Shown: positions 1,995 through 14,710 of the stretch, one piece after another
Position numbering within the stretch: the stretch's first letter is position 1
Layout of the letters: each line of letters starts with the position of its first letter
From: an uncultured Bacteroidales bacterium
Lineage (GTDB): Bacteria; Bacteroidota; Bacteroidia; Bacteroidales; WCHB1-69
NCBI GenBank assembly: GCA_900319925.1
Contig: ONQE01000001.1
Coordinates: forward strand, 8,452-72,451
Length of the DNA stretch: 64,000 bases
Reading direction: 5' to 3'
The notes under the pieces: model-generated
The model's database searches: none
Told to the model about the DNA's origin: nothing
The model's input: only the letters and a program-made list of their open reading frames with translations
Made by a program: the position numbers and the translations under genes

Positions 1995-2020
1995 AAAATC
2001 TATTTATTGATAAGTGATTT

Positions 2021-2088
2021 TGACGCGGCAAAGATACGCATTTCCGCAACACGGGCCTCCGCCAAACTCGCGAGAGGCGAATTTTTGT
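2021..2088 (-). promoter_or_regulatory. Conserved upstream element, copy A (includes the -7 box TATCTTTG at 2029-2036)
   Basis: About 68 bp, near-identical to 8212-8278. Contains the inverted repeat GCCTC...GGAGGC and the string CCGCCAAACTCGCG. Lies 27 nt upstream of the thioredoxin-domain gene start. Confidence 0.5.
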
Positions 2089-2113
2089 GGAGGTGTGGTC
2101 TTTAATTGCGTTT

Positions 2114-2683
2114 TTATTCTTTGAGCAACTCGTCGATTTCTTCGTTGAGTTCGTCGAAGCGTTTCTTTACCCGCTTGGAGGTTTTGATTACGACAGGAAT
2201 GGACAAAAGACCGGAGACTAGTAGAGTAAAGAACATTGATCTGTCGTAGAAAAAGAGGTAAACATATATCAACAATGATATTATTATGCCAACAACCTGT
2301 ATGACAATGCGTTTACGCTTCGAATAGGTCGTGCTCTTTTGAATACTATCCCGCAACGAAAGGAGACCTTCGCGACTCTGCGCGTCGGCTTTTCGGAGAC
2401 CGTTGGTGGCGATAAGACTGTCCAACGTAATCCAGCCAAGAAAGAGGTCACTGGGGAGTAAAAGCCACCACGGCCAATATTCACAGAGGATAAAGTTACT
2501 GGCGGTTATGATGACTACCAAAAATATGACGGAAAGCAAGTTCTGCATATAGAGGTGCTTGCTGTGCCGTTTCACCGCACGCTGCCATACCTCCCTGTTG
2601 AAGCTGCTGTGCTGCTCCACATTCTGCTGCAGGTCGTGCAGTTCCTGCTGCAGTTCGCTTTTGATGTCTTCGTACTGTTCCAT
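2114..2683 (-). CDS. 4-TM membrane protein, putative partner or anti-sigma of the upstream ECF sigma (paralog 1)
   Basis: 189 aa. A cytoplasmic helix (MEQYEDIKSELQQELHDLQQNVEQHSSFN) precedes four hydrophobic segments. It starts 15 nt after the sigma gene stop. Its first 28 aa are identical to the ORF at 6079-6657. Confidence 0.6.
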   Translation of the reverse strand: MEQYEDIKSELQQELHDLQQNVEQHSSFNREVWQRAVKRHSKHLYMQNLLSVIFLVVIITASNFILCEYWPWWLLLPSDLFLGWITLDSLIATNGLRKADAQSREGLLSLRDSIQKSTTYSKRKRIVIQVVGIIISLLIYVYLFFYDRSMFFTLLVSGLLSIPVVIKTSKRVKKRFDELNEEIDELLKE

Positions 2684-3252
2684 ATCTGTTTTGAGGTTTA
2701 GTCGGTGAATGATTTGAGTTTCTCGCGTATGCGCACCAAGCGCACGCTGACGTTATCGACGGTGATGCCGAGGATGGCGGCAATCTCGTCGTAGGGCAGG
2801 TCTTCGAGCCAAAGCAGAATCAGTGCGCGGTCGAAGGGATGCAGCCGTGCGATGCGCTTGTGCAGTCGGCTTGCCGCCGGACAGGCCTCCTCGGCGGCGA
2901 AGAGGTCGATGTCCATTTCCAAAGGCATGCAGTCGGGACGGCGGCGGTTGCGCTTGTCGAAGGTCACGCAGGTGTTCAGGGCCACGCGATAGACCCACGT
3001 TTTGGCCGAGCTGCGCCCTTCGAAACTGTCGATGCCCTGCCAGAGGCGTATCAGCACCTCTTGGGCGAGGTCGTCCGCTTCCTGGCGGTCGTTGGCGAAG
3101 AGGTAGCACACAGAGTAGATGGTCTGCCGCTGCTCCTGCATTAACCGCTCGAAGTCGTGCTCTTTCTGTTCTTTGTCTTTTTTCTGCTTCATCTTTCAGA
3201 CGTTGTTTTCCTTTTGACTACGAAGGTGGCGATACACCTCAAACTCAAAAAA
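2597..3252. repeat. Direct repeat copy 1 (about 0.65 kb), paired with 6571-7232
   Basis: Hand alignment shows near-identical DNA. It covers the sigma gene, about 60 bp of its leader and the first roughly 85 nt of the downstream TM gene. Confidence 0.85.
2698..3192 (-). CDS. ECF-type RNA polymerase sigma-70 factor (paralog 1)
   Basis: 164 aa. Region 2-like DDLAQEVLIRLW and region 4 HTH DLPYDEIAAILGITVDNVSVRL. Confidence 0.85.
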   Translation of the reverse strand: MKQKKDKEQKEHDFERLMQEQRQTIYSVCYLFANDRQEADDLAQEVLIRLWQGIDSFEGRSSAKTWVYRVALNTCVTFDKRNRRRPDCMPLEMDIDLFAAEEACPAASRLHKRIARLHPFDRALILLWLEDLPYDEIAAILGITVDNVSVRLVRIREKLKSFTD

Positions 3253-3308
3253 TGGCAATACCAAACTTCTGGGATTTCTCATTCAGGCTGGATTTATAAA
3301 GCCAAAGC

Positions 3309-6025
3309 CTATTGCTGCATCGTCGTCGGCTGCATATCGACACGAGTGTAGATTTCGGGGTGGAAGTACTTTTTCATGAATTCGACCATCTCTTTCTTGG
3401 TAACCGAATTGACGATGTTGTCGTATTCGGAAGGCGCGATAATCGGCTCATCTTGGATAACCTTGCCGCTGATATAGCCTAACCAGAAGCTGTTGGATTG
3501 GATGTTCTTGGCATGGGTGCTGGTCATCTGCTTCTTGATGAGGGCCATGGTCTTATTGTCCGGACCCTTGGCCTTGAAGTCGTTCAAAATCTTGAGGCTG
3601 GCAGTAGCCAATTTGTCTGTCTTCACCGGGTCGCAACCTAAGAGAATCATCAGGGTTATTTCAGGACGAGGCAGTTTGCCGGCGCTCATACTTACCGTCG
3701 GGGAATAGACATCGCCCATCTTTTCACGCACAATCTTGACGAACAGGATGTCTAATGCCTCACCGATCATATCGGTGATGATGGCGTTGCGGTAGCTCCA
3801 GTCGATGGGGTTGGTGATGAACATGCCCATCCAGCCCTGTTCCTCGGTACCGGCATAAACGGTTTGCGTAGAGGCCTTGTCGGGACGCGGTTTCAGTACG
3901 TTGAGGTTGTAGTTCTCTTTCTTACCGGATTCGGTCTTCAGGGAACCGAGATAGAGTTCCACAAATTGTTTCATCTCCGTCTCATCGTAGTTGCCCACGA
4001 AAAAGAAGGTAAAGTCAGCGGGATTGGCGAAACGCTCCTTGTAGATCTGCACGGCGCGATCGAAGTCAGTCTGTTTCAGATATTCCTCATCGTAAGAGAA
4101 GAACTGTTTCATATAGGGGTCGTTATTGTTAGCGGCTTCAACCAACTGGCCCAAGAACTGGTACATCGGTTGTGCTTGGAGCATCTTGATGCCCTCGCGG
4201 CTCTCGTCCATCATCAATTCGAAAGCGTTGGTGTCGATGCGCGGATTGGAGAAGAAAGCGTTAAGATATTGGAAGAAGAGATCCAGGTCTTTCGGGGAAG
4301 AAGAACCGTTGAAACCTTCTGACAACAGTTTGATTTCAGGATAAAGGCTTACGTTTTTGCCCTTCATCTTCTTCGACAGGGAGTTGTAATCCAGACCGGC
4401 TATACCGCCATGGTTGATAATGTCGCAAGCGAAATCAGCGGAAGCCAGATCTTTCACGGGATAGAGCGTTTTGCCGCCCTTGCTGATGGCGGTAAACAGA
4501 ATCTCATCGTTCTTATAGTCGGTTTTCTTCAGATAGACAGTGATGCCGTTAGAGAGCGTCCATTTCTCGGCACCTACGGTCTCGATTGTCTCCACATTTG
4601 TGATTTTGCCGGGCTTCAGTGTCTCCTTTTCGAGGATTTCTTGATCCTTATAGGTATCCACATAAGGTTGTACATTAGTTAAAGACTTGTCTTTCAATAT
4701 AGAAAGGATCTCGTCCTTGCCGGGAACGGTGACGCCTTCTTTGTCTGGGGCGGTGACAACGGCCACCATATTATCTTCCGTCACCCAATTCTTGGCCAAT
4801 GCATTGATTTCCTCCAAGGTAATATCTCCCATCAGCTTTTTGGCGTAATTGTTCTCACGTTTTGCACCCGGGATGGGGTCTTGATGCAGGAAGTTGTTGA
4901 CGTATTCGGAGGCGAAACTGGCAGATTCGGTCTTGTCAGCCTCCTTGGCCGCCTTGTCGTAGAGCTCCAGGAGTTCCTCTTTGGCACGATCGAGTTCGGT
5001 CTGCAGGAAACCGTATTTCAGCACGCGGTAGTCCTCTTGCAGGAGCGCGCGCAGCGCATCGGGAATGCGGTTTTCCTTAGCTATGGCTTCCAAAGCGTAA
5101 GCATCGGTGTTACCGTAAAAGTTGCCATATCCGCCGTTGGCACCCATGAACGGGCACTTCGGGTCCTGGGTCATTTCCGTAAAGCGGGCATCCAGCATGG
5201 TGTTATAGAGGTCGATGCAGAGTTGGTCGCGGAAGTCGCCGATGGTCTTCATCGCGGTGTGTTTGTGCTTGCGGATGAGCTGCCGAACATAGCTTTGATT
5301 TTGCCTTCCACTTCCGCCACGTTGATATCACCTACCACAATCACCGCCTGTAGGTCTGGACGATACCAATCGTTGTAAAAGTCCTTGATGACTTGGTAGT
5401 CAAAGGTTTGCAGAATGTCAAGCTTACCGATGGGCATACGGTCGGCGTAGCGGGAACCTTGCATCAGGATCGGCCAATACTCCTTGCGCATACGGTCCAC
5501 GGCACCGAGACCGAGGCGGTGTTCCTCGATAATGACACCGCGCTCCTCGTCAATTTCTTTGTTGTCGAAGAGCAGACAGGCAGCCCAGCCTCTCATGATT
5601 TTGAGGCCGAGGTCAATGTTGGTAGGATCGTCCGTCGGCATGGGAATCATATAGACCGTCTCGTCGAAGTAGGTGTTGGCGTTGAGGTCGGCACCGAACA
5701 CCACGCCCTTGCTGCGCAAGTGATCCACCACGCTATTGCCAGGGAAACCCTCGATGCCGTTGAAGGCCATGTGCTCGGTGAAGTGCGCCAGACCCTGCTG
5801 GTTATCGTTCTCCTGGTTGGAGCCGACATTCACCGCGAGACGGAACTCCACACGATTCTTCGGGTAGGTGTTCTTGCGGATATAATAGGTCAGACCGTTG
5901 TCCAATTTGCCGATGACCACGTTGGGGTCGGCCTTGATGGGATCGTTCAGGTTCAGGTCACCCTTCTGCGCGAAAACGGCCAACGCACAGATCATCGCCA
6001 TCATAAACAAAAATACTTTCTTCAT
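3309..6025 (-). pseudogene. M16 family zinc peptidase (pitrilysin-like), split into two ORFs
   Basis: ORF 5249-6025 (258 aa) has a signal peptide and the HxxEH motif (HFTEH). ORF 3309-5252 (647 aa) continues the M16 fold in a different frame. The frames meet near 5250-5290. Confidence 0.7.
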
Positions 6026-6060
6026 AAACGTTTGTGTTAAAATAATTGCAACATTTCCTT

Positions 6061-6081
6061 AGACTTAAGACTTGGGACTTA
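6061..6081. repeat. Heptamer array, family F (AGACTTA AGACTTG GGACTTA)
   Basis: Three clear units plus two degenerate ones extending to 6095. Contains the stop codon and last codons of ORF 6079-6657. Lies 36 nt upstream of the M16 start. Confidence 0.5.
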
Positions 6082-6657
6082 AGAGGGTTGGGATTCGTCC
6101 AGTAGCTCGTCGATTTCCTCGCTAAGCTCGTCGTAGCGTTTCGTCACCTCCCGGGTTCTTTTGCGACCAAAGGGACCATTTAAGAATCCAATCCATATAA
6201 TCATGGAGAAGCAGGCTATGCGGTCGTAAAAAAAGAGGAAAACTTCAGACACCAGAAACAAAATGATACCGATTATTCGGATGATGGTGCGTTTGCGCTT
6301 CGAGTAGGTCTTTAAACTTTCTCGCAGCGAGAGGAGACCTTCGCGGCTCTGCACGTCGGCCTTCCGGAGACCAATTATGGCGAAAAGGCTGTCAACCGCT
6401 ATCCAAACAAAGTACAGGTCGCACAAGAGGATAAGCCACCAAGGCCACTTGATGAGAGTGAGAGCGACGGTTAAGGCAATCGTGATGACTACAGCCGCTC
6501 CTGCGAGAAAAGCGTTTAGCCAGTAGAGTTCATTGCTGGACTGTTTCACCGTCTCCCGCCATGCGTCATTGTTGAAGCTGCTGTGCTGCTCCACATTCTG
6601 CTGCAGGTCGTGCAGTTCCTGCTGCAGTTCGCTTTTGATGTCTTCGTACTGTTCCAT
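6079..6657 (-). CDS. 4-TM membrane protein, putative ECF sigma partner (paralog 2)
   Basis: 192 aa with the same architecture as 2114-2683. The N-terminal 28 aa are identical, the membrane part has diverged, and the motif LRKAD.QSREGLLSLR is shared. Confidence 0.6.
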   Translation of the reverse strand: MEQYEDIKSELQQELHDLQQNVEQHSSFNNDAWRETVKQSSNELYWLNAFLAGAAVVITIALTVALTLIKWPWWLILLCDLYFVWIAVDSLFAIIGLRKADVQSREGLLSLRESLKTYSKRKRTIIRIIGIILFLVSEVFLFFYDRIACFSMIIWIGFLNGPFGRKRTREVTKRYDELSEEIDELLDESQPS

Positions 6658-7232
6658 ATCTGTCTTGAGGTTTAATCGGTGAATGATTTGAGTTTTTCGC
6701 GTATGCGCACCAGACGTACGCTGACGTTATCGACGGTGATGCCGAGGATGGCGGCAATCTCGTCGTAGGGCAGGTCTTCGAGCCAAAGCAGGATCAGTGC
6801 CCGGTCAAAGGGATGTAATTTCGCGATGCGCTTGTGCAGGCGGCTGGCGGCAGGACAGGCTTCCTCGTCGGCGAAGAGGTCGATGTCCATTTCCAGCGGC
6901 ATGCAGTCGGGACGGCGGCGGTGGCGTTTGTCGAGGGTCACGCAGGTGTTCAGCGCCACCCGATAGACCCACGTCTTGGCCGAGCTTCGCCCCTCAAAAC
7001 TGTCGATACCCTGCCAGAGGCGTATCAGCACCTCTTGGGCGAGGTCGTCCGCTTCTTGGCGGTCGTTGGCGAAGAGGTAGCACACCGAGTAGATGGTCTG
7101 CCGCTGCTCCTGCACTAACCGTTCGAAGTCGCGCTCTTTCTGTTCTTTGTCTTTTTTCTGCTTCATCTGTCAGACATTGTTTTCCTTTTGACTACGAAGG
7201 TAGCGAAAAACTACACCCTAAACTCAAAAAAA
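6571..7232. repeat. Direct repeat copy 2, paired with 2597-3252
   Basis: See copy 1. Confidence 0.85.
6672..7166 (-). CDS. ECF-type RNA polymerase sigma-70 factor (paralog 2)
   Basis: 164 aa. Differs from paralog 1 at 6 residues by hand count. Confidence 0.85.
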   Translation of the reverse strand: MKQKKDKEQKERDFERLVQEQRQTIYSVCYLFANDRQEADDLAQEVLIRLWQGIDSFEGRSSAKTWVYRVALNTCVTLDKRHRRRPDCMPLEMDIDLFADEEACPAASRLHKRIAKLHPFDRALILLWLEDLPYDEIAAILGITVDNVSVRLVRIREKLKSFTD

Positions 7233-7243
7233 TTGAATCTCCG

Positions 7244-8200
7244 CTATTTACAGCATTCCATTTTTTTCAGCTCCGCCAAACGACGTTGGGCCGTGCGGAG
7301 GGAGAAATGCAGGTCGTCTGCCACCTGCTGCGCATTGGCACTGGGATTCTTTTCCAGATAGTCCCGTAGCCGTCTCAAATCTTCGGAAAGGCCTGCATTG
7401 TGGCTTTCCACATCCGTTTCGTTGAAATCTTCGTGAGAATAGAGTTCTGGATTCCAGGCTTTTAGATGCTTCATGACCTCTTCCGTTTTTGTGGAATAAT
7501 AGTGGATGATTTTGTCCTGCCCGTTCACGTTTATGCACAGCGCAGTGTCATTGTAGCGCACGATGCTGTCTCGCATGACAAGGGTCTGGCGGTTGACCCG
7601 GGTCCAAAGCTCAGAAGGAATCAGCTCCTCCAATTCTGAAAGGGTACCGTTTCGATGTGTTGTTTCTCCGTTTTTCAAGATGAGAACAACTCCGTCTGTA
7701 TCGCAAGTAAAACAGGCAATATCCTTAAAATCAATCAGCTGCTGCTTCCTCTCCGGCGAAATGACCACTAATTTGTCATCAGCGTAGTCAAATGCCCGCT
7801 CCACGTTGTCAATCACAAAGTAATGGTTCCGGTTGATGAGCGCAAACGCATAGATGAACGCCGGGAAGAGGAGGATGGTGGCGATGATGGCCCCAAAAGG
7901 GAGAAACAAGTTCACATGCAAGAACATTAATAGGATGAGAATGAGGTCATACAGCACGTACAGACACATCGGAAAGTTGTCGATGGTGTCGAACAGGATG
8001 GTGTCCCCATCTCTGACCGAACAATGACGGCTGCTTTTGAAAAAGTTGTCCTTGATTGTCAGATTGAACTCTTCCTTTCCCACATTGAGGGTTAGCGGGC
8101 GGAAACGGTAAACCTTTCCGACCAATTCTCCGTCGATGAACACCAGATACGGGGTGATTTTGAAATAGCCGAACGGTTTTTGCTTGATGGTGATTTGCAT
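7244..8200 (-). CDS. Membrane protein with a LytTR-like DNA-binding domain and a C-terminal HTH
   Basis: I moved the start to the ATG at 8198-8200 (MQITIKQ) because the longer ORF covers its own promoter box. Hydrophobic segments lie around residues 95-150. The LytTR-like core is IDFKDIACFTCDTDGVVLILKNGETTHRNGTLSELEELIP..WTRVNRQTLV. The C-terminus reads NAQQVADDLHFSLRTAQRRLAELKK. Confidence 0.6.
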   Translation of the reverse strand: MQITIKQKPFGYFKITPYLVFIDGELVGKVYRFRPLTLNVGKEEFNLTIKDNFFKSSRHCSVRDGDTILFDTIDNFPMCLYVLYDLILILLMFLHVNLFLPFGAIIATILLFPAFIYAFALINRNHYFVIDNVERAFDYADDKLVVISPERKQQLIDFKDIACFTCDTDGVVLILKNGETTHRNGTLSELEELIPSELWTRVNRQTLVMRDSIVRYNDTALCINVNGQDKIIHYYSTKTEEVMKHLKAWNPELYSHEDFNETDVESHNAGLSEDLRRLRDYLEKNPSANAQQVADDLHFSLRTAQRRLAELKKMECCK

Positions 8201-8211
8201 AGTGGTTGGTT

Positions 8212-8278
8212 TAACGCGGCAAAAGTACGTATTCTCGCAACACCGGCCTCCGCCAAACTCGCGGGAGGCGAATTTTGG
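8212..8278 (-). promoter_or_regulatory. Conserved upstream element, copy B (includes the -7 box TACTTTTG at 8220-8227)
   Basis: Near-identical to 2021-2088. Lies 12 nt upstream of the LytTR gene start. Confidence 0.5.
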
Positions 8279-8388
8279 CGGCATTTTCATTCCACATTTG
8301 TGGCTATATTGCCACTTTTGGGGAATGAAAACACACTAAATATTTTGAATCTTCGCCATTTGCCACGTCTCATTAGTTCTTCTAAGGA

Positions 8389-8988
8389 TTACTGTAACGT
8401 CATGTAAAACTTGTCCGTGTTAATCAGTACGATAGCCGCTTTTTTGACGGCCCCGTTTTCGCGCAAATTGGATTTGACCGTTTCAATGGCCGATTTTGAG
8501 ATTTTTGGAAGCATATTGGTCCAAAACACTACAATCAGGTACTCGGAATCGTCATGGATTCCGTAAATGTCTCTGATTTTCGATAGATTCTGCATTTGCG
8601 GAGTGATGGGGACAGCCGTCGCCGGCGGGAACGTTTCAAACCGTTGATCCGTATTCCAGTTCAGGTTGGCGAGTCCGCCCTTTGCCGTGCAATTGATGTG
8701 ATAGGAGAGAAGCGAATCCTTTTTGAGGTAGAGGATTTGAACCGGCTGGACAGCAGTCTGATGTTGCCACAAACTGTCCTGGATGCACGTCCGATAAGCG
8801 TCAAACTGCTCGTACTCACTGACTATAGGTTTGATTTTGAAATCCCGGTCCAGGACAGAAGTAATCATCTGGTCATATTCTTTCTGATCAAACTGCTTTA
8901 TGGGTTTGAAATCGTACAGCACCCTACAGCCTGCCAGCAGTATTGCGATGGCAAGAAACAAGGTGGCAAAACGACTTTCATTCTTCAT
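8389..8988 (-). CDS. Hypothetical lipoprotein
   Basis: 199 aa. Signal peptide with lipobox-like LLAGC. No family recognised. Confidence 0.55.
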   Translation of the reverse strand: MKNESRFATLFLAIAILLAGCRVLYDFKPIKQFDQKEYDQMITSVLDRDFKIKPIVSEYEQFDAYRTCIQDSLWQHQTAVQPVQILYLKKDSLLSYHINCTAKGGLANLNWNTDQRFETFPPATAVPITPQMQNLSKIRDIYGIHDDSEYLIVVFWTNMLPKISKSAIETVKSNLRENGAVKKAAIVLINTDKFYMTLQ

Positions 8989-9002
8989 GATTCTGTGATG
9001 TT

Positions 9003-10175
9003 TTATTTGATCCGTTCCACCACTTTCCAGTCGTCAATCAGCCGTTTCTCCGTATTGAAATTGATGCCGATCTTGGTAAACCCTTCCTCCACTTCGCGAT
9101 TGGGGAACCCCAAAGTGTAGGTGCCGAACTCAGGATCATAGCTCTCGATGGTGAGGTAGCCGCTTTGGAACAGCAGCGGCAGCGGGTTCTCGTCCATGAT
9201 TTCAATGCTGTTCAGTGTGTCAACAGTGAGTTCCTCGCGGGTCATGTCCTCAAGCAAGAAATTGGTCTTCAACAGCTGATGTACCAGAAACGTGGGTGTG
9301 CCCGTTTCGAACCAGTAGTCTTTGAACTGCCCGCTGGCTAATGTGCTCAATAGGCTGAACGGATTGTAAATCCCCACAGTGTCGGGCTGGAAATGGTAAC
9401 CGTCAAAATCGCGTTTCAGGCGGGCATAGCATTCGTCCTTCGTCATGTTGTTGGCGGTGGCAAGTTCGGCCACCCCTTCGTCAAAATTCGTCCGCAACTC
9501 CGCCTCGGAAATGCCGCAAATATCCACATAACGGCTATCCAACGAGATGTCAGTCAGATGGTTGAGGTCGCTAAAGACACTCACCTTGCCGAACTTGGTA
9601 ACTCCCGTGAGGAAGGCAAACTTGATATACTCATCGCAGCTCTTAAGATTACCGTAGAAGGCTTTCAGCGTGGATCGATAGTCCTCCTGCAACTCGGGAT
9701 TGCCAATGGCTTCGAGCATTGGTTTGTCGTATTCATCGACTAAAATGACCACCTTGCGACCGGTTATTTCGCAAGCCTTTTTGATGACGAAATAGAAACG
9801 CTCCTCAACGGCAAGATCGCGTTGGTCCAACCCGTATTTTTCCTCCCATTGTATCAGATATTTGTTCAGCTCTGCGTGCAAAGCGCTTACATCCGTGTAA
9901 TTCCTGGCATTCAAATCCAGATGCAGCACAGGGTATTCACCCCAATCTTTCTCCAATCCCGCGATAGCCAACCCCTCAAACAGTTCCTTTTTACCTTCGA
10001 AATAATCCTTCATGGTAGAGAGTAAGAGACTTTTACCGAATCTTCGCGGACGGCTGAGGCAGTAGTAACTTCCCGTTTCCGCCAACCAATAAATGGCGGC
10101 GGTCTTGTCCACGTATGCATATCCATTTCTTCTGATTTTCTCGAAATTTTGTATTCCTACAGGGTATTTTGTCAT
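9003..10175 (-). CDS. AAA-ATPase-like/PD-(D/E)XK (PF09820/PF08011-type) protein, probably internally deleted
   Basis: The N-terminus MTKYPVGIQNFEKIRRNGYAYVDKT...SRPRRFGKSLLLST is typical of the family. The protein is 390 aa, whereas I recall about 520 aa for this family. The sequence jumps from FPNREVEEGFTK directly to the family C-terminal IGINFNTEKRLIDDW. Confidence 0.6.
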   Translation of the reverse strand: MTKYPVGIQNFEKIRRNGYAYVDKTAAIYWLAETGSYYCLSRPRRFGKSLLLSTMKDYFEGKKELFEGLAIAGLEKDWGEYPVLHLDLNARNYTDVSALHAELNKYLIQWEEKYGLDQRDLAVEERFYFVIKKACEITGRKVVILVDEYDKPMLEAIGNPELQEDYRSTLKAFYGNLKSCDEYIKFAFLTGVTKFGKVSVFSDLNHLTDISLDSRYVDICGISEAELRTNFDEGVAELATANNMTKDECYARLKRDFDGYHFQPDTVGIYNPFSLLSTLASGQFKDYWFETGTPTFLVHQLLKTNFLLEDMTREELTVDTLNSIEIMDENPLPLLFQSGYLTIESYDPEFGTYTLGFPNREVEEGFTKIGINFNTEKRLIDDWKVVERIK

Positions 10176-10285: not shown

Positions 10286-11125
10286 TCAGTACACGAAACG
10301 GCCGCTCGCGACATCGAAGCGGGCAGTGTGGTCGTAGCCGCAACGTTCGAGCTCGACGAGGGCCTCCGGCACGAAGAGCACCAACTCGTCGGCCTTGTGC
10401 GCATCACTGCTGACAATCACCGGGATGTCGGCCTTCCGCGCCTTCATCAGCAGCTCGGTGGAGGGGTAGAAACTGTCACTGCGGCCCTTGTAAAGCCCGC
10501 GTGTGTTCACCTCCACGATGATGTCGTGCCGCTTGATCAGCTGTATCGCCTTGTCGGCCAGCACCTTGTACCATTGCTCGTCTTCCGTGAAGAAGCGGTT
10601 GCGGTTATGCATCTTGATCTTGTCGAAGTGAGCGATGATGTCCATCCGCTGCGTCTCGATCATCTCGAAGGTCTGCTCCCAAAACGCGGTCACGGCCATC
10701 TTGATGTTGTTGTCGAAGAGGTCGCGCAGACCGTTGTCGTAGATCTCCTGCTTGGGGCCGTCGATGAACCAAAGTCCGTCGCCGTGGGGCTGCCGCACCT
10801 GGTGTACGCCGCCGATGAGGTAGTCCAGGCCGTTCTTGTCCTGGCGCTCCGCGAAGTCCGTGGTAACCTCCGGGATGTAGTCGCATTCCAGGGATTTCAG
10901 CAGCGTGAGGTCAGTGGTGCGCTGCAATTCGTCGATTTCCCGGATATAGTCGGGAAGTTTTGCCTCTTCCATAGCGAAGGTGTTCTCGAACGGCACGGGC
11001 GCGTGCGAGGAGAATCCTAACTGGCGGAGACCGCACTTTTCGGCGGCACGCACCTGCTCTTCCAGGGTGCTTTTGCCGTCACAGTAGAGGCTGTGGGTAT
11101 GGTAATTGGCGGGGTAATAGGTCAT
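10286..11125 (-). CDS. PHP-family histidinol-phosphatase (HisJ-type)
   Basis: 279 aa. N-terminal YHTHSLYCDGK metal-binding motif and a length typical of HisJ/PHP phosphatases. Confidence 0.7.
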   Translation of the reverse strand: MTYYPANYHTHSLYCDGKSTLEEQVRAAEKCGLRQLGFSSHAPVPFENTFAMEEAKLPDYIREIDELQRTTDLTLLKSLECDYIPEVTTDFAERQDKNGLDYLIGGVHQVRQPHGDGLWFIDGPKQEIYDNGLRDLFDNNIKMAVTAFWEQTFEMIETQRMDIIAHFDKIKMHNRNRFFTEDEQWYKVLADKAIQLIKRHDIIVEVNTRGLYKGRSDSFYPSTELLMKARKADIPVIVSSDAHKADELVLFVPEALVELERCGYDHTARFDVASGRFVY

Positions 11126-11282: not shown

Positions 11283-12590
11283 TTATTCGGTGGCGGGTGA
11301 TTCGGGGTCGGGTGATTCGACATCGGGTGATTCGGGGTCGGGAGGCTCGGGGTTTTGGATGCCGTCGAGGATGTTGAGCATCTGGTCGCTGCGGCCGGCG
11401 TGGGCTTTGTTGTAGAGGTTGCTGAGGAAGACGATGACGACGTTGTCGGAGGGGCGGTAGAGGAACAGGTTCTGGAAGCCGTTCCAGAGGCCGCCGTGGT
11501 AGACCAGCTTGCCGTGCGTGGGACTCTCCTCGATGCGGTAGCCGTAGCCGTAGATGCTGGCCGGGAGTTTGCCGCCGTTCAGCTGGTTCTCGCGCTGCGA
11601 GGCGAGGTCCACCCACTCTTTCGGCAGGATTTTGTAGTCGATGAACATGGCGTTGGCCCAGCGGAGCATATCCTCCGCGTTAGAGTAGATGCCCTTGTCG
11701 CCGAGCACCCCGTTGAGCCGGTCGTATCTCGCGACAACGCCTCCCCTGCGGTGTCCGATGGCAATCGGTATATCCGACGGCAGTGCTTTCACACTCACAT
11801 CTTCCGCTTTCGGGTCCACATCGGCGTACTTCCTGCCGTGTTTGGCATCGATGCCCACGATTTCGGTGAAGAAGCAGGTGGCGTCCATCCCGGCAGGTTT
11901 GAAAATGTTCTCGTGCACATACTCTTCGAAGGGCATCCCGGAGACCTGCGCCACCAACGCCGCCAGAATCGCATAGTTGGTGTTCACATACTCGAACTTG
12001 GTACCCGTGGCGAAGGTCTTGGCATACTTCTGTTTCTCCAAAACCCGCAACAGATGCTCGTTATCCACGAACGCCGCCCCGCCATAGACCGTGTATTTGA
12101 ACTTGAAATATTCGGGGATGCCGGAGGTATGGGTCAGCAGATGCCGAATGGTGACACCGCGATAGGGAAGATTCGGGAAATAGTGCGTGATGGTGTCTTC
12201 CAAGTTGATTTTCCCCTGCGCGCAGAGCTGCAGCACCGCCACCGCGGTGAATTGCTTGGAGATGGAGGCCAAATCGAAGAGGGTGTTTTCCGTTATCTGG
12301 TTGTTCTCGGGAACATCGCGACGAGGCGGCTCACCGGTCAGGCGGAGTTCCCCGTAGGCATACTCGACCAGCACGGTGTCGCGCACTGCCACGAGCATCA
12401 CCCCATTGAGTTTTTCCGACATCTCGTTGGCCACAAATTCCAGCCCCTCAATGTCGTAACGGTCGCCGATGGTGTCCAACAGGTGTTGCCGGTAGCGCTC
12501 TTCCGTGAAAAAAGCCGTGTAGGTGTCCGCCTTGAGATTCACGACGAAGCACATAAACACGGCTATCGGGAACAAAAACTTCTTTAACAT
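11283..12590 (-). CDS. Serine hydrolase of the beta-lactamase (class C/PBP-like) family with a repeat-encoded acidic Pro-rich tail
   Basis: 435 aa. Signal peptide, SxxK motif (SISK) and YxN motif (YVN). The C-terminus PDPESPDVESPDPESPATE is encoded by a 15-bp tandem repeat. Confidence 0.8.
   Translation of the reverse strand: MLKKFLFPIAVFMCFVVNLKADTYTAFFTEERYRQHLLDTIGDRYDIEGLEFVANEMSEKLNGVMLVAVRDTVLVEYAYGELRLTGEPPRRDVPENNQITENTLFDLASISKQFTAVAVLQLCAQGKINLEDTITHYFPNLPYRGVTIRHLLTHTSGIPEYFKFKYTVYGGAAFVDNEHLLRVLEKQKYAKTFATGTKFEYVNTNYAILAALVAQVSGMPFEEYVHENIFKPAGMDATCFFTEIVGIDAKHGRKYADVDPKAEDVSVKALPSDIPIAIGHRRGGVVARYDRLNGVLGDKGIYSNAEDMLRWANAMFIDYKILPKEWVDLASQRENQLNGGKLPASIYGYGYRIEESPTHGKLVYHGGLWNGFQNLFLYRPSDNVVIVFLSNLYNKAHAGRSDQMLNILDGIQNPEPPDPESPDVESPDPESPATE
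11295..11354. repeat. 15-bp tandem repeat, 4 units (GGGTGATTCGGGGTC-like), inside a CDS
   Basis: Hand-parsed units at 11295, 11310, 11325 and 11340. Confidence 0.8.
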
Positions 12591-12655: not shown

Positions 12656-12690
12656 TAACTGCTAACTACTAACTACTAACTGCTAACTAA
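12656..12690. repeat. Heptamer array, family A in reverse orientation (TAACTGC TAACTAC x2 TAACTGC TAACTAA)
   Basis: Five units ending 2 nt from the rho stop codon. Read in the rho sense it is AGTTAGC/AGTTAGT. Confidence 0.85.
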
Positions 12691-12692
12691 AA

Positions 12693-14606
<1,914 letters not shown>

Positions 14607-14710
14607 TTTTTGATGATAAAACTTGCATTGGATTTTTCGCCACGGCACGGAAGGCAATCGACTGCCGACCCTGTTTTGCCCGTCGCGGAGCATCTGTTTG
14701 AATTGCGCTG

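Follow-up and report, generated by a model that had tools for sequence, protein, structure and literature searches.

A duplicated ECF sigma factor gene and its four-transmembrane partner in an uncultured Bacteroidales bacterium: a recombining sigma pool joined to exchangeable putative anti-sigma cores

How can one half of a regulatory gene pair be kept alike in two copies while the other half becomes a different protein? The question is raised by a locus in an uncultured Bacteroidales bacterium (GenBank assembly GCA_900319925.1, contig ONQE01000001.1), within the 64,000-nucleotide (nt) stretch of DNA that we refer to as the window. Here each of two genes for sigma factors of the extracytoplasmic function (ECF) class is followed by a gene for a partner protein of about 190 amino acids (aa) with four transmembrane (TM) segments, and the two sigma/partner modules, A and B, flank a gene for an M16 (insulinase-family) peptidase. 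ECF sigma factors and their anti-sigma factors are usually treated as insulated one-to-one modules, and are exploited in synthetic biology as such. The reading that we favour, with moderate confidence, is that the window belongs to a lineage-specific, multi-copy array of ECF sigma and putative anti-sigma genes, in which a recombining pool of sigma copies is joined to swappable membrane cores and would serve a shared regulon.

All genes of the locus lie on the minus strand and are read in the order LytTR-domain membrane protein, sigma-B, partner-B, M16 peptidase, sigma-A, partner-A and thioredoxin-domain protein. Module B opens with a promoter-like constant leader (7167-7232; TTTTTGAGTTTAGGGTGTAGTTTTTCGCTACCTTCGTAGTCAAAAGGAAAACAATGTCTGACAG followed by the ATG), continues with the gene for the 164-aa sigma-B (6672-7166) and ends with that for partner-B (6079-6657). 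Module A has the same plan, with a leader carrying a 5-nt deletion (3193-3252), a 164-codon sigma-A gene (2698-3192) and the partner-A gene (2114-2683), and the peptidase gene (3309-6025; signal peptide, Peptidase_M16 and M16_C domains) stands between the two. By blastn, 2550-3252 pairs with 6524-7231 at 91.3% identity over 709 columns (E = 0), and the blocks 2597-3252 and 6571-7232 are 93.4% identical (613/656, with 6 gap columns). Each repeat runs from a leader of 60-65 nt through the sigma gene and a spacer of 14 nt into the partner gene, of which it takes in 29 codons, and both of its edges are sharp, the one about 60-65 nt before the sigma ATG and the other between partner codons 29 and 30. 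Those 29 codons (6571-6657 in B, 2597-2683 in A) encode a constant amphipathic N-terminal helix, MEQYEDIKSELQQELHDLQQNVEQHSSFN; the remainder encodes a variable four-TM core, of type 1 ('B') at 6079-6570, with a slot-specific tail ending in EEIDELLDESQPS before the stop codon, and of type 2 ('A') at 2114-2596, with a tail ending in EEIDELLKE. No third copy of the module was found in the window by tblastn.

An earlier note on this DNA had described the duplication of the sigma gene and partner N-terminus around the peptidase gene, and blastn, segment comparison and collinearity with other assemblies all bear this out. Its wording needs two adjustments, the blocks being highly similar rather than near-identical and the identical partner stretch being 29 and not 28 residues long. 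We also considered whether the arrangement could be an artefact of assembly or binning, such as a chimeric contig made from two strains. A metagenome-assembled genome (MAG) is the probable source, and short-read assemblers have difficulty with repeats of about 660 nt. However, the copies differ at 43 positions and so were not collapsed during assembly, and the same gene order recurs in the independent loci L017 and L031 (our labels for comparison loci) and partly in L008 and L013. Because window positions 2019-7234 are collinear with L017 and L031 at 93-98% identity, the arrangement is not an assembly artefact, and we regard this explanation as hardly credible.

The two copies have not diverged evenly. 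The sigma coding sequences differ at 37 of 495 nt (7.5%), giving the six differences in 164 residues that had been counted before (H12R, M18V, F78L, N82H, A100D and R116K; 96.3% protein identity), the spacer at a single nucleotide, and the first 87 nt of the partner gene at none. Beyond residue 29 the partners are 52% identical, and had rightly been called diverged, with four hydrophobic segments, a GLRKAD.QSREGLLSLR loop and an EEIDELL tail retained. By the Nei-Gojobori method, synonymous divergence (dS) is 0.35 in the sigma gene, falls to 0 over partner codons 1-29 and reaches 1.43 over the remainder of the partner gene, where non-synonymous divergence (dN) is 0.39 as against 0.017 in sigma. 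Synonymous differences number about 30 at 109 sites in sigma and 68 at 107 sites in the rest of the partner (Fisher p = 1.5e-7), so that synonymous divergence is lower in the putatively converted tract than in the adjoining sequence of the same duplication. This jump across the junction rejects a pair of old paralogues with uniformly distributed divergence, the outcome that the earlier note had named as fatal to its own proposal.

The longest perfect tract shared by A and B would be only marginal as a conversion event by itself, given a background divergence of 6.6%, and the argument for recombination therefore rests on comparative data. Twelve loci came from a scan of species-representative genomes, all of them MAGs of uncultured rumen Bacteroidales, and 20 more (L013-L032) from a metagenome scan with an exact 31-nt junction pattern; with the window, the 32 loci give 40 modules, 33 of them complete. 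In every module homology begins at the leader whatever the upstream gene (19 upstream regions aligned), and the 5-nt leader deletion of module A is common to several modules that follow an M16 gene. Beyond residue 48 the partner cores fall into at least seven discrete types about 50% apart. Partner-B clusters with 14 other type-1 modules, and the core of partner-A is 97-99% identical to the type-2 cores of L001, L002, L004, L017, L023 and L028.

The sigma genes show no such partition. Among 24 closely related core modules the sigma nucleotide distance is 5.28% between modules of the same partner type (n = 70) and 5.11% between modules of different type (n = 206), with no correlation between sigma distance and partner type (Mantel r = -0.003, p = 0.49); in the 33 complete modules sigma distances are 8.46% and 8.56%, against 11% and 50% for the partner cores. 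Nor is sigma distance related to upstream context, downstream context or contig. Along a sliding profile, pairs of the same type diverge as much as pairs of different type (3-12%) from position -39 to about +590, past which different-type pairs rise to 20-63% and same-type pairs stay at 1-8%. Within sigma the four-gamete test fails for 45% of the site pairs that are informative (832 of 1830); the six residues at which A and B differ are ordinary polymorphisms found in every combination with every partner type, and no sigma residue among the modules compared is specific to any type. The contrast is sharpest for type 2, where the cores have a dS of 0.021 and the sigma genes attached to them one of 0.233, ten-fold more. 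Core dN/dS is 0.19 within types and about 0.27 between them. Judged by these patterns of polymorphism, we show that recombination keeps a single pool of sigma and N-helix alleles across all modules, and that the cores are discrete, constrained types; recombinational homogenisation of sigma is, on this comparison, strongly supported.

The end points of the tracts vary. Two modules of L001 share a perfect 678-nt tract that runs from -53 to partner codon 38, so that its type-1 partner is a hybrid carrying type-2 codons 30-38, whereas the window repeat ends at codon 29. Incongruence between tract and flank and mosaicism within the tract are thus both found, in the Mantel and four-gamete analyses and in the differing end points of the window and L001. 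Copies within one genome are no closer than copies in different genomes, same-contig sigma distance being 5.25% and different-contig distance 5.15%, and identical sigma copies within a contig occur in L001 only; this points to a pool shared across the population rather than to strict homogenisation within each genome. With a 7.5% nt difference, the two window copies are no closer to each other than modules drawn at random from the pool (mean 5%, dS reaching 0.45), which indicates conversion that is ongoing in the population and not recent at this site. The earlier proposal of recent gene conversion thus stands as regards homogenisation, for which non-uniform dS, type-independent sigma distance and the L001 hybrid all speak, but its recency does not hold here.

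These data also bear on the alternative that the modules are old paralogues evolving independently, in which block similarity would reflect nothing more than strong purifying selection on sigma and the helix. Sigma is indeed under purifying constraint (dN/dS 0.055), and the N-helix is conserved at the protein level throughout the family. Against this stand the four-fold difference in synonymous divergence across the junction (p = 1.5e-7), a sigma phylogeny decoupled from partner type, the frequency of four-gamete failures and the hybrid junction of L001, and we consider independent evolution very improbable.

A second crossover zone lies in the C-terminal tail of the partner. A tail of the form ELL(N/D)ES(R/Q)PS before the stop is present in 10 of 10 modules preceding an M16 gene, whether of type 1, 2 or 4, and in none of the 23 others, and a tail ending in ELLKE, with a conserved hairpin element behind it, follows cores of types 1, 2, 3 and 6. 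Since the tail tracks the downstream slot and not the core type, the core behaves as a cassette swapped between two constant flanks: the types are discrete, and the variants of both flanks are independent of them. The slot before M16 holds type 1, 2 or 4 and the slot after it type 1, 2, 3 or 4. Accordingly, the order sigma-pB, M16, sigma-pA of the window, L017 and L031 (p denoting the partner and its type) is replaced by sigma-pA, M16, sigma-pB in L001, by sigma-pA, M16, sigma-p4 in L004 and, in L008, by sigma-pB, M16, sigma-p3 and LytTR with a further sigma gene beyond; L005 has two modules with no M16 gene between them. By these gene orders, the array gains and loses units. The earlier note had allowed for deletion or inversion of the intervening peptidase locus; because the repeats are direct they permit deletion or duplication, which fits the variable arrays across assemblies, but not inversion.

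The hairpin element, of about 95 nt, was found after 12 modules of types 1, 2, 3 and 6 and precedes genes for thioredoxin-domain, LytTR or lipoproteins. It has a 16-bp stem (CCTCCGCCAAA.TTCGC...GCGAG.TTTGGCGGAGG) with no run of T, followed by a promoter-like TAnnTTTG box. In L005 (11846-11950) and L008 (8776-8880) it folds at -39 to -40 kcal/mol (z about -4); the window copy after module A (2019-2113, minus strand), upstream of the thioredoxin-domain gene, is degraded (z = -2.3), and Rfam has no match in the region. A GGAAT-N14-CGTC sequence in the element was considered as a promoter and set aside, its spacing being too short for a classical ECF promoter. A partial second element at 8210-8281 (minus strand), which lies upstream of the LytTR gene but is not preceded by a module, is 86-88% identical to 2019-2090 and lacks the left hairpin arm. 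The same LytTR gene directly follows a module and its element in L005, L008, L017 and L028, and the partial copy is likely to be the scar of a module lost by deletion. The module has no blastn match in PLSDB or INPHARED and no meaningful PADLOC match, and so does not class as plasmid, phage or mobile cargo on these searches. A diversity-generating retroelement or site-specific invertase was likewise rejected as the source of the variability, there being no reverse transcriptase or recombinase among the neighbours tested and the repeats being direct.

What kind of sigma factor is held in common? Both copies match Sigma70_r2 (62 bits; E = 5e-17 for copy B) and Sigma70_r4_2 (40-41 bits; E = 1.6e-10 for copy B) and score 89-91 bits against TIGR02937 (copy B 91), well above its cut-off of 42.9. 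With sigma2 and sigma4 regions only and a length within the class of about 160-200 aa, they are ECF (group 4) sigma-70 factors. Among solved structures, AlgU and SigW come closest to them (E about 1e-15), and SigE is also among the PDB matches. The nearest named model is NF058625 (PG0214/GFO_1088), whose equivalog cut-off of 130 bits they do not reach at 72-75 bits, in the range of the sigma factors that stand beside distant partner relatives (68-84 bits); placement is therefore at the level of the TIGR02937 superfamily.

The second question is the nature of the partner. Hidden Markov model searches against Pfam and NCBIfam and a profile search of the PDB uphold the earlier remark that it bears no known anti-sigma signature: anti-sigma profiles of the zf-HC2, RsiW, RseA, RskA and FecR type gave nothing on its N-terminal 60 aa even at E = 10, the N-domain has no cysteine and hence no HxxxCxxC motif, and its profile found nothing in the PDB below E = 3.9. 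Sub-threshold matches to DUF2207_C (18-21 bits, cut-off 33) and LeoBC (E = 0.008) were discarded as noise. Hydropathy and lysine/arginine counts place the N-terminus (48 aa), the loop at 95-125 and the C-terminal tail, all three rich in lysine and arginine, in the cytoplasm, with predicted outer loops of 7 and 4 aa only; an AlphaFold2 model has helices at 3-25, 30-66, 72-97, 104-118, 122-146 and 148-188. Strongly conserved positions all fall on the predicted cytoplasmic face, including a conserved hydrophobic stripe on the N-helix, and variable positions lie mostly inside the TM helices.

An indexed search returned 158 homologues of the partner, all unnamed and from Bacteroidales or rumen sources, in about nine clusters. 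Their N-terminal 29 residues are about 90-100% conserved in all types and their C-parts 31-60% identical. W33, LY44-45, PWW71-73, the GLRKADVQSREGLLSLR loop and the EEIDELL tail are conserved family-wide, and the N-terminal helix is consequently not the sole constant part that it had been taken for, since cytoplasmic loop and tail share that status. In the family alignment, the core of P0117 is identical to the P0076 type but its N-terminus is divergent, and the C-terminal third of P0102 matches P0026 while their middles belong to different types; these mosaics point to additional crossover points inside the core. Reaching further, a profile search of 1.84 billion representatives gave 48 clusters at E <= 1e-3. 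The distant full-length relatives (12-29% identity) keep the amphipathic N-helix with its hydrophobic stripe, four TM segments and an IDEL-like tail, and all seven that were looked up lie directly behind an ECF sigma gene of 158-162 aa, one of them being followed by a Peptidase_M50 (site-2-protease-type) gene with TPR. In all 40 modules the partner gene starts 14 nt downstream of sigma. The pair is thus co-oriented, adjacent and conserved across divergent relatives, and its persistence down to 12-29% identity is our main evidence for the partner as a dedicated regulator of sigma, most likely, as far as its sequence and gene context can tell, of a new multipass family of anti-sigma factors.

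The partner could instead be a membrane protein of another kind that is co-transcribed with sigma: an effector, perhaps, an immunity-like protein, or one that tethers sigma to the membrane or activates it. Its 5' end would then be conserved only through hitch-hiking on conversion tracts that begin in sigma, or for translational-coupling or RNA signals at the junction. Class I anti-sigma domains are longer than about 48 aa, the length of the cytoplasmic N-domain here, no anti-sigma signature appears in any library searched, and diversity within the block is lowest at the junction, from +381 to +590, as a constraint at the nucleotide level would also produce. Yet retention of the sigma-partner pair in seven of seven distant relatives would be unlikely without functional coupling, and the N-helix and its stripe are kept at the protein level even there. 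Moreover, a membrane protein encoded at position +1 counts as a putative anti-sigma factor in ECF classification 2.0, in which four-TM candidates occur in only 3 of 157 groups (PMC7826278). We therefore hold a role other than anti-sigma to be unlikely, if still to be taken seriously.

A model that would account for these observations runs as follows. The window holds two units of an array specific to an uncultured rumen Bacteroidales lineage, each made of a constant 5' block (a leader of about 65 nt, sigma, spacer and N-helix), a variable core and a short constant EEIDELL tail. The comparative data show homologous recombination, as intragenomic gene conversion, interstrain exchange or both, at work through the two constant flanks, the long 5' flank of leader, sigma and N-helix and the short 3' flank encoding EEIDELL, moving cores as cassettes between genomic slots and merging the sigma copies into one allele pool. 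A conversion tract would stop where the sequences are too divergent for homologous pairing and where selection acts against a hybrid TM bundle. The partner would hold and inhibit sigma at the membrane through its N-helix, loop helix and C-terminal helix, the first of which the earlier note had proposed as the contact with sigma, and the almost entirely membrane-embedded core would be where a signal is received or a protease acts. Since the sigma copies are effectively interchangeable, and the N-helices likewise, different cores would feed one shared sigma pool and one regulon, as the earlier note's idea of two different membrane sensors controlling effectively one sigma specificity also supposes; we infer this fan-in logic from the arrangement. 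The regulon would probably include the following secreted M16 peptidase and other envelope proteins, with the thioredoxin-domain, LytTR and lipoprotein genes found alongside the array as further candidates.

Several points weigh against this model. Within the window, the candidate promoter motif GTAGTT-N-YGTAGTC occurs once, in the module B leader (7190-7214), and a scan for the sigma-70-type consensus is of little use in Bacteroidota. The partner matches no family in Pfam, NCBIfam, PADLOC or the PDB, its AlphaFold2 model is of only moderate quality (predicted local distance difference test score 72), and Foldseek searches with that model found no PDB match below E = 0.68. The longest perfect tract between A and B in the window, at 94 nt, is weakly significant alone. 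All comparison sequences are MAG or metagenome contigs, collapse of repeats in the assembly graph could account for the perfect 678-nt identity in L001, a short-read MAG, and the exact 31-nt pattern used for retrieval inflates apparent junction conservation in L013-L032; the decoupling of sigma from partner type is unaffected by that pattern.

It may also be asked whether the core types differ in function at all. ECF classification 2.0 does not settle whether, in a genome with several members of one ECF group, these are redundant or specialised (PMC7826278), and the modules here could be redundant duplicates that raise gene dosage, with cores that have drifted into types of no distinct signal specificity. 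TM helices tolerate substitution, and the variation is mostly within them, the outer loops being tiny; the between-type dN/dS of about 0.27 gives no sign of positive selection. On the other hand, the types are discrete and conserved across many assemblies (1-8% nt difference within and 20-63% between types, within-type dN/dS 0.19), and several coexist as distinct types in one genome despite homogenisation next door, which implies selection against hybrid cores. We accordingly think redundancy distinctly unlikely. A more far-reaching version of our own model would make the array a population-level cassette system that diversifies the intramembrane sensing domain, all versions reporting to the shared sigma. 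Each core type would recognise a different membrane-active agent, be it a bacteriocin or other membrane-inserting peptide, an ionophore, a plant compound or a phage or effector protein; strains would carry subsets of two to three or more cores under balancing or frequency-dependent selection, and recombination would keep the output module universal. We offer this as a speculation that is rather unlikely to be right as it stands; if true, an ECF sigma factor would here underlie a specificity system comparable to innate immunity or to agr, of a kind not described before.

The general plan of the module is familiar from Escherichia coli sigmaE-RseA and Bacillus subtilis sigmaW-RsiW, pairs controlled by regulated intramembrane proteolysis. 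The likeness extends to the two-domain sigma of about 160 aa, the co-oriented downstream partner gene and a cytoplasmic N-terminal helical segment leading into the membrane, and one distant relative adjoins an M50 gene. Unlike RseA and RsiW, the present partner has four TM segments, almost no extracytoplasmic domain, no zf-HC2 or RseA_N signature and an N-domain of only about 48 aa, and its unit is multi-copy with an effectively identical sigma. In encoding a polytopic membrane protein directly after the ECF sigma factor, and in presumably sensing within or at the membrane, the module resembles those of NrsF, the six-TM putative anti-sigma of Caulobacter sigmaF, although the Pfam, NCBIfam and PDB profile searches detected no sequence relationship to such multipass anti-sigmas. 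Duplicates evolving in concert by gene conversion are known from tufA/tufB and the rRNA operons, which likewise keep synonymous sites similar and show mosaic polymorphism; here, by contrast, homogenisation stops at a defined point inside the neighbouring gene, beside diversity that is maintained downstream.

The closest analogue is provided by the multiple sigmaI-RsgI pairs of Clostridium thermocellum, described as fine-tuning cellulosome regulation (PMC6056542). There too a genome holds several paralogous sigma/anti-sigma operons with differing sensor parts. The variable parts of RsgI are large extracellular domains, whereas in our array the variable part is a TM bundle and the sigma copies are homogenised into one pool. 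For the population genetics the nearest likeness is the hypervariable region of Staphylococcus aureus agr; in the agr groups, as in the comQXP pherotypes of Bacillus, a hypervariable membrane sensor segment has conserved sequence on both sides, and recombination in these flanks exchanges discrete, deeply diverged types. Both are two-component quorum-sensing loci that are present in single copy and whose peptide signal co-varies, while here the types coexist as paralogues, the output is a sigma factor and no ligand gene visibly co-varies. Literature searches on gene conversion or cassette exchange in sigma/anti-sigma systems and on rumen Bacteroidales ECF systems returned nothing relevant, and no account was found of homogenised sigma copies with exchangeable anti-sigma cores or of the partner family.

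The locus thus offers a natural case in which the output half of a regulator, sigma and its presumed sigma-binding helix, is kept alike and the input half is kept as discrete, exchangeable types, and it illustrates clearly how selection and recombination can divide a gene along the border between domains. It also brings to light a small, previously unannotated family of candidate multipass anti-sigma factors, and a clean system in which to ask what a nearly loop-less TM bundle senses. Its reach is limited by the fact that the organisms are uncultured and the functional statements inferred.

Among the neighbouring genes, that for the M16 peptidase starts 53 nt after partner-B with no hairpin element between, and is probably co-transcribed with the module before it. 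In the window it carries a 112-nt frameshifting deletion near 5279, between CATCC microhomologies, which splits it into open reading frames (ORFs) at 5249-6025 (258 aa) and 3309-5252 (647 aa) with an ATGA overlap. All related loci break alignment at window positions 5278/5281, so the deletion is specific to the window, and L001, L004 and L010 have intact orthologues of 942 aa; the broken gene would be either a pseudogene or an assembly error. In L031 a second, diverged but intact M16 gene (6472-9300; 942 aa, 81-87% identical to the first) follows a type-2 partner, indicating that the peptidase too has been duplicated in some arrays.

At the upstream end, the LytTR gene (7244-8200; LytTR E = 5e-7) encodes a protein of 318 aa whose central segment is hydrophobic and which has a LytTR DNA-binding domain and, at its C-terminus, an HTH_24-like region. 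Since the ORF as listed begins at 8290, inside the repeated element, the ATG at 8200 is probably where the gene really starts. It precedes sigma-B in the window and follows a partner gene in L005, L008, L017 and L028; overall it adjoins modules in L005, L008, L013, L017, L020 and L028. At the other end, the gene for a secreted thioredoxin-domain protein with a WCGPC motif (996-1994; Thioredoxin E = 8e-23) has counterparts behind modules in L001, L002, L005, L007, L019 and L028.

A 41-codon ORF (MNP..KLFALFC.LALLLPACVTV...RYRTLKINGMR, then stop) abuts the leader of some modules, in L001 (about 9300-9440), L005 (about 10600-10720) and L029, and its sequence continues as KINGMRWMAENL downstream of the second module of L004. 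It has the appearance of a lipoprotein gene of which only the 5' end is left, cut off at the start of a module, and it may resemble the Fibrobacter-type paralogous domain. Further along the window, a 15-nt tandem repeat of 3.9 copies (11285-11342) within a minus-strand ORF (11283-12590) encodes the PEPPDPESPDVESPDPESP-type C-terminal tail of a Beta-lactamase-family (PF00144) protein, and between this gene and that for the Rho termination factor (12693-14693) lies an intergenic heptamer repeat, TAACTAC, in 4.9 copies (12656-12689).

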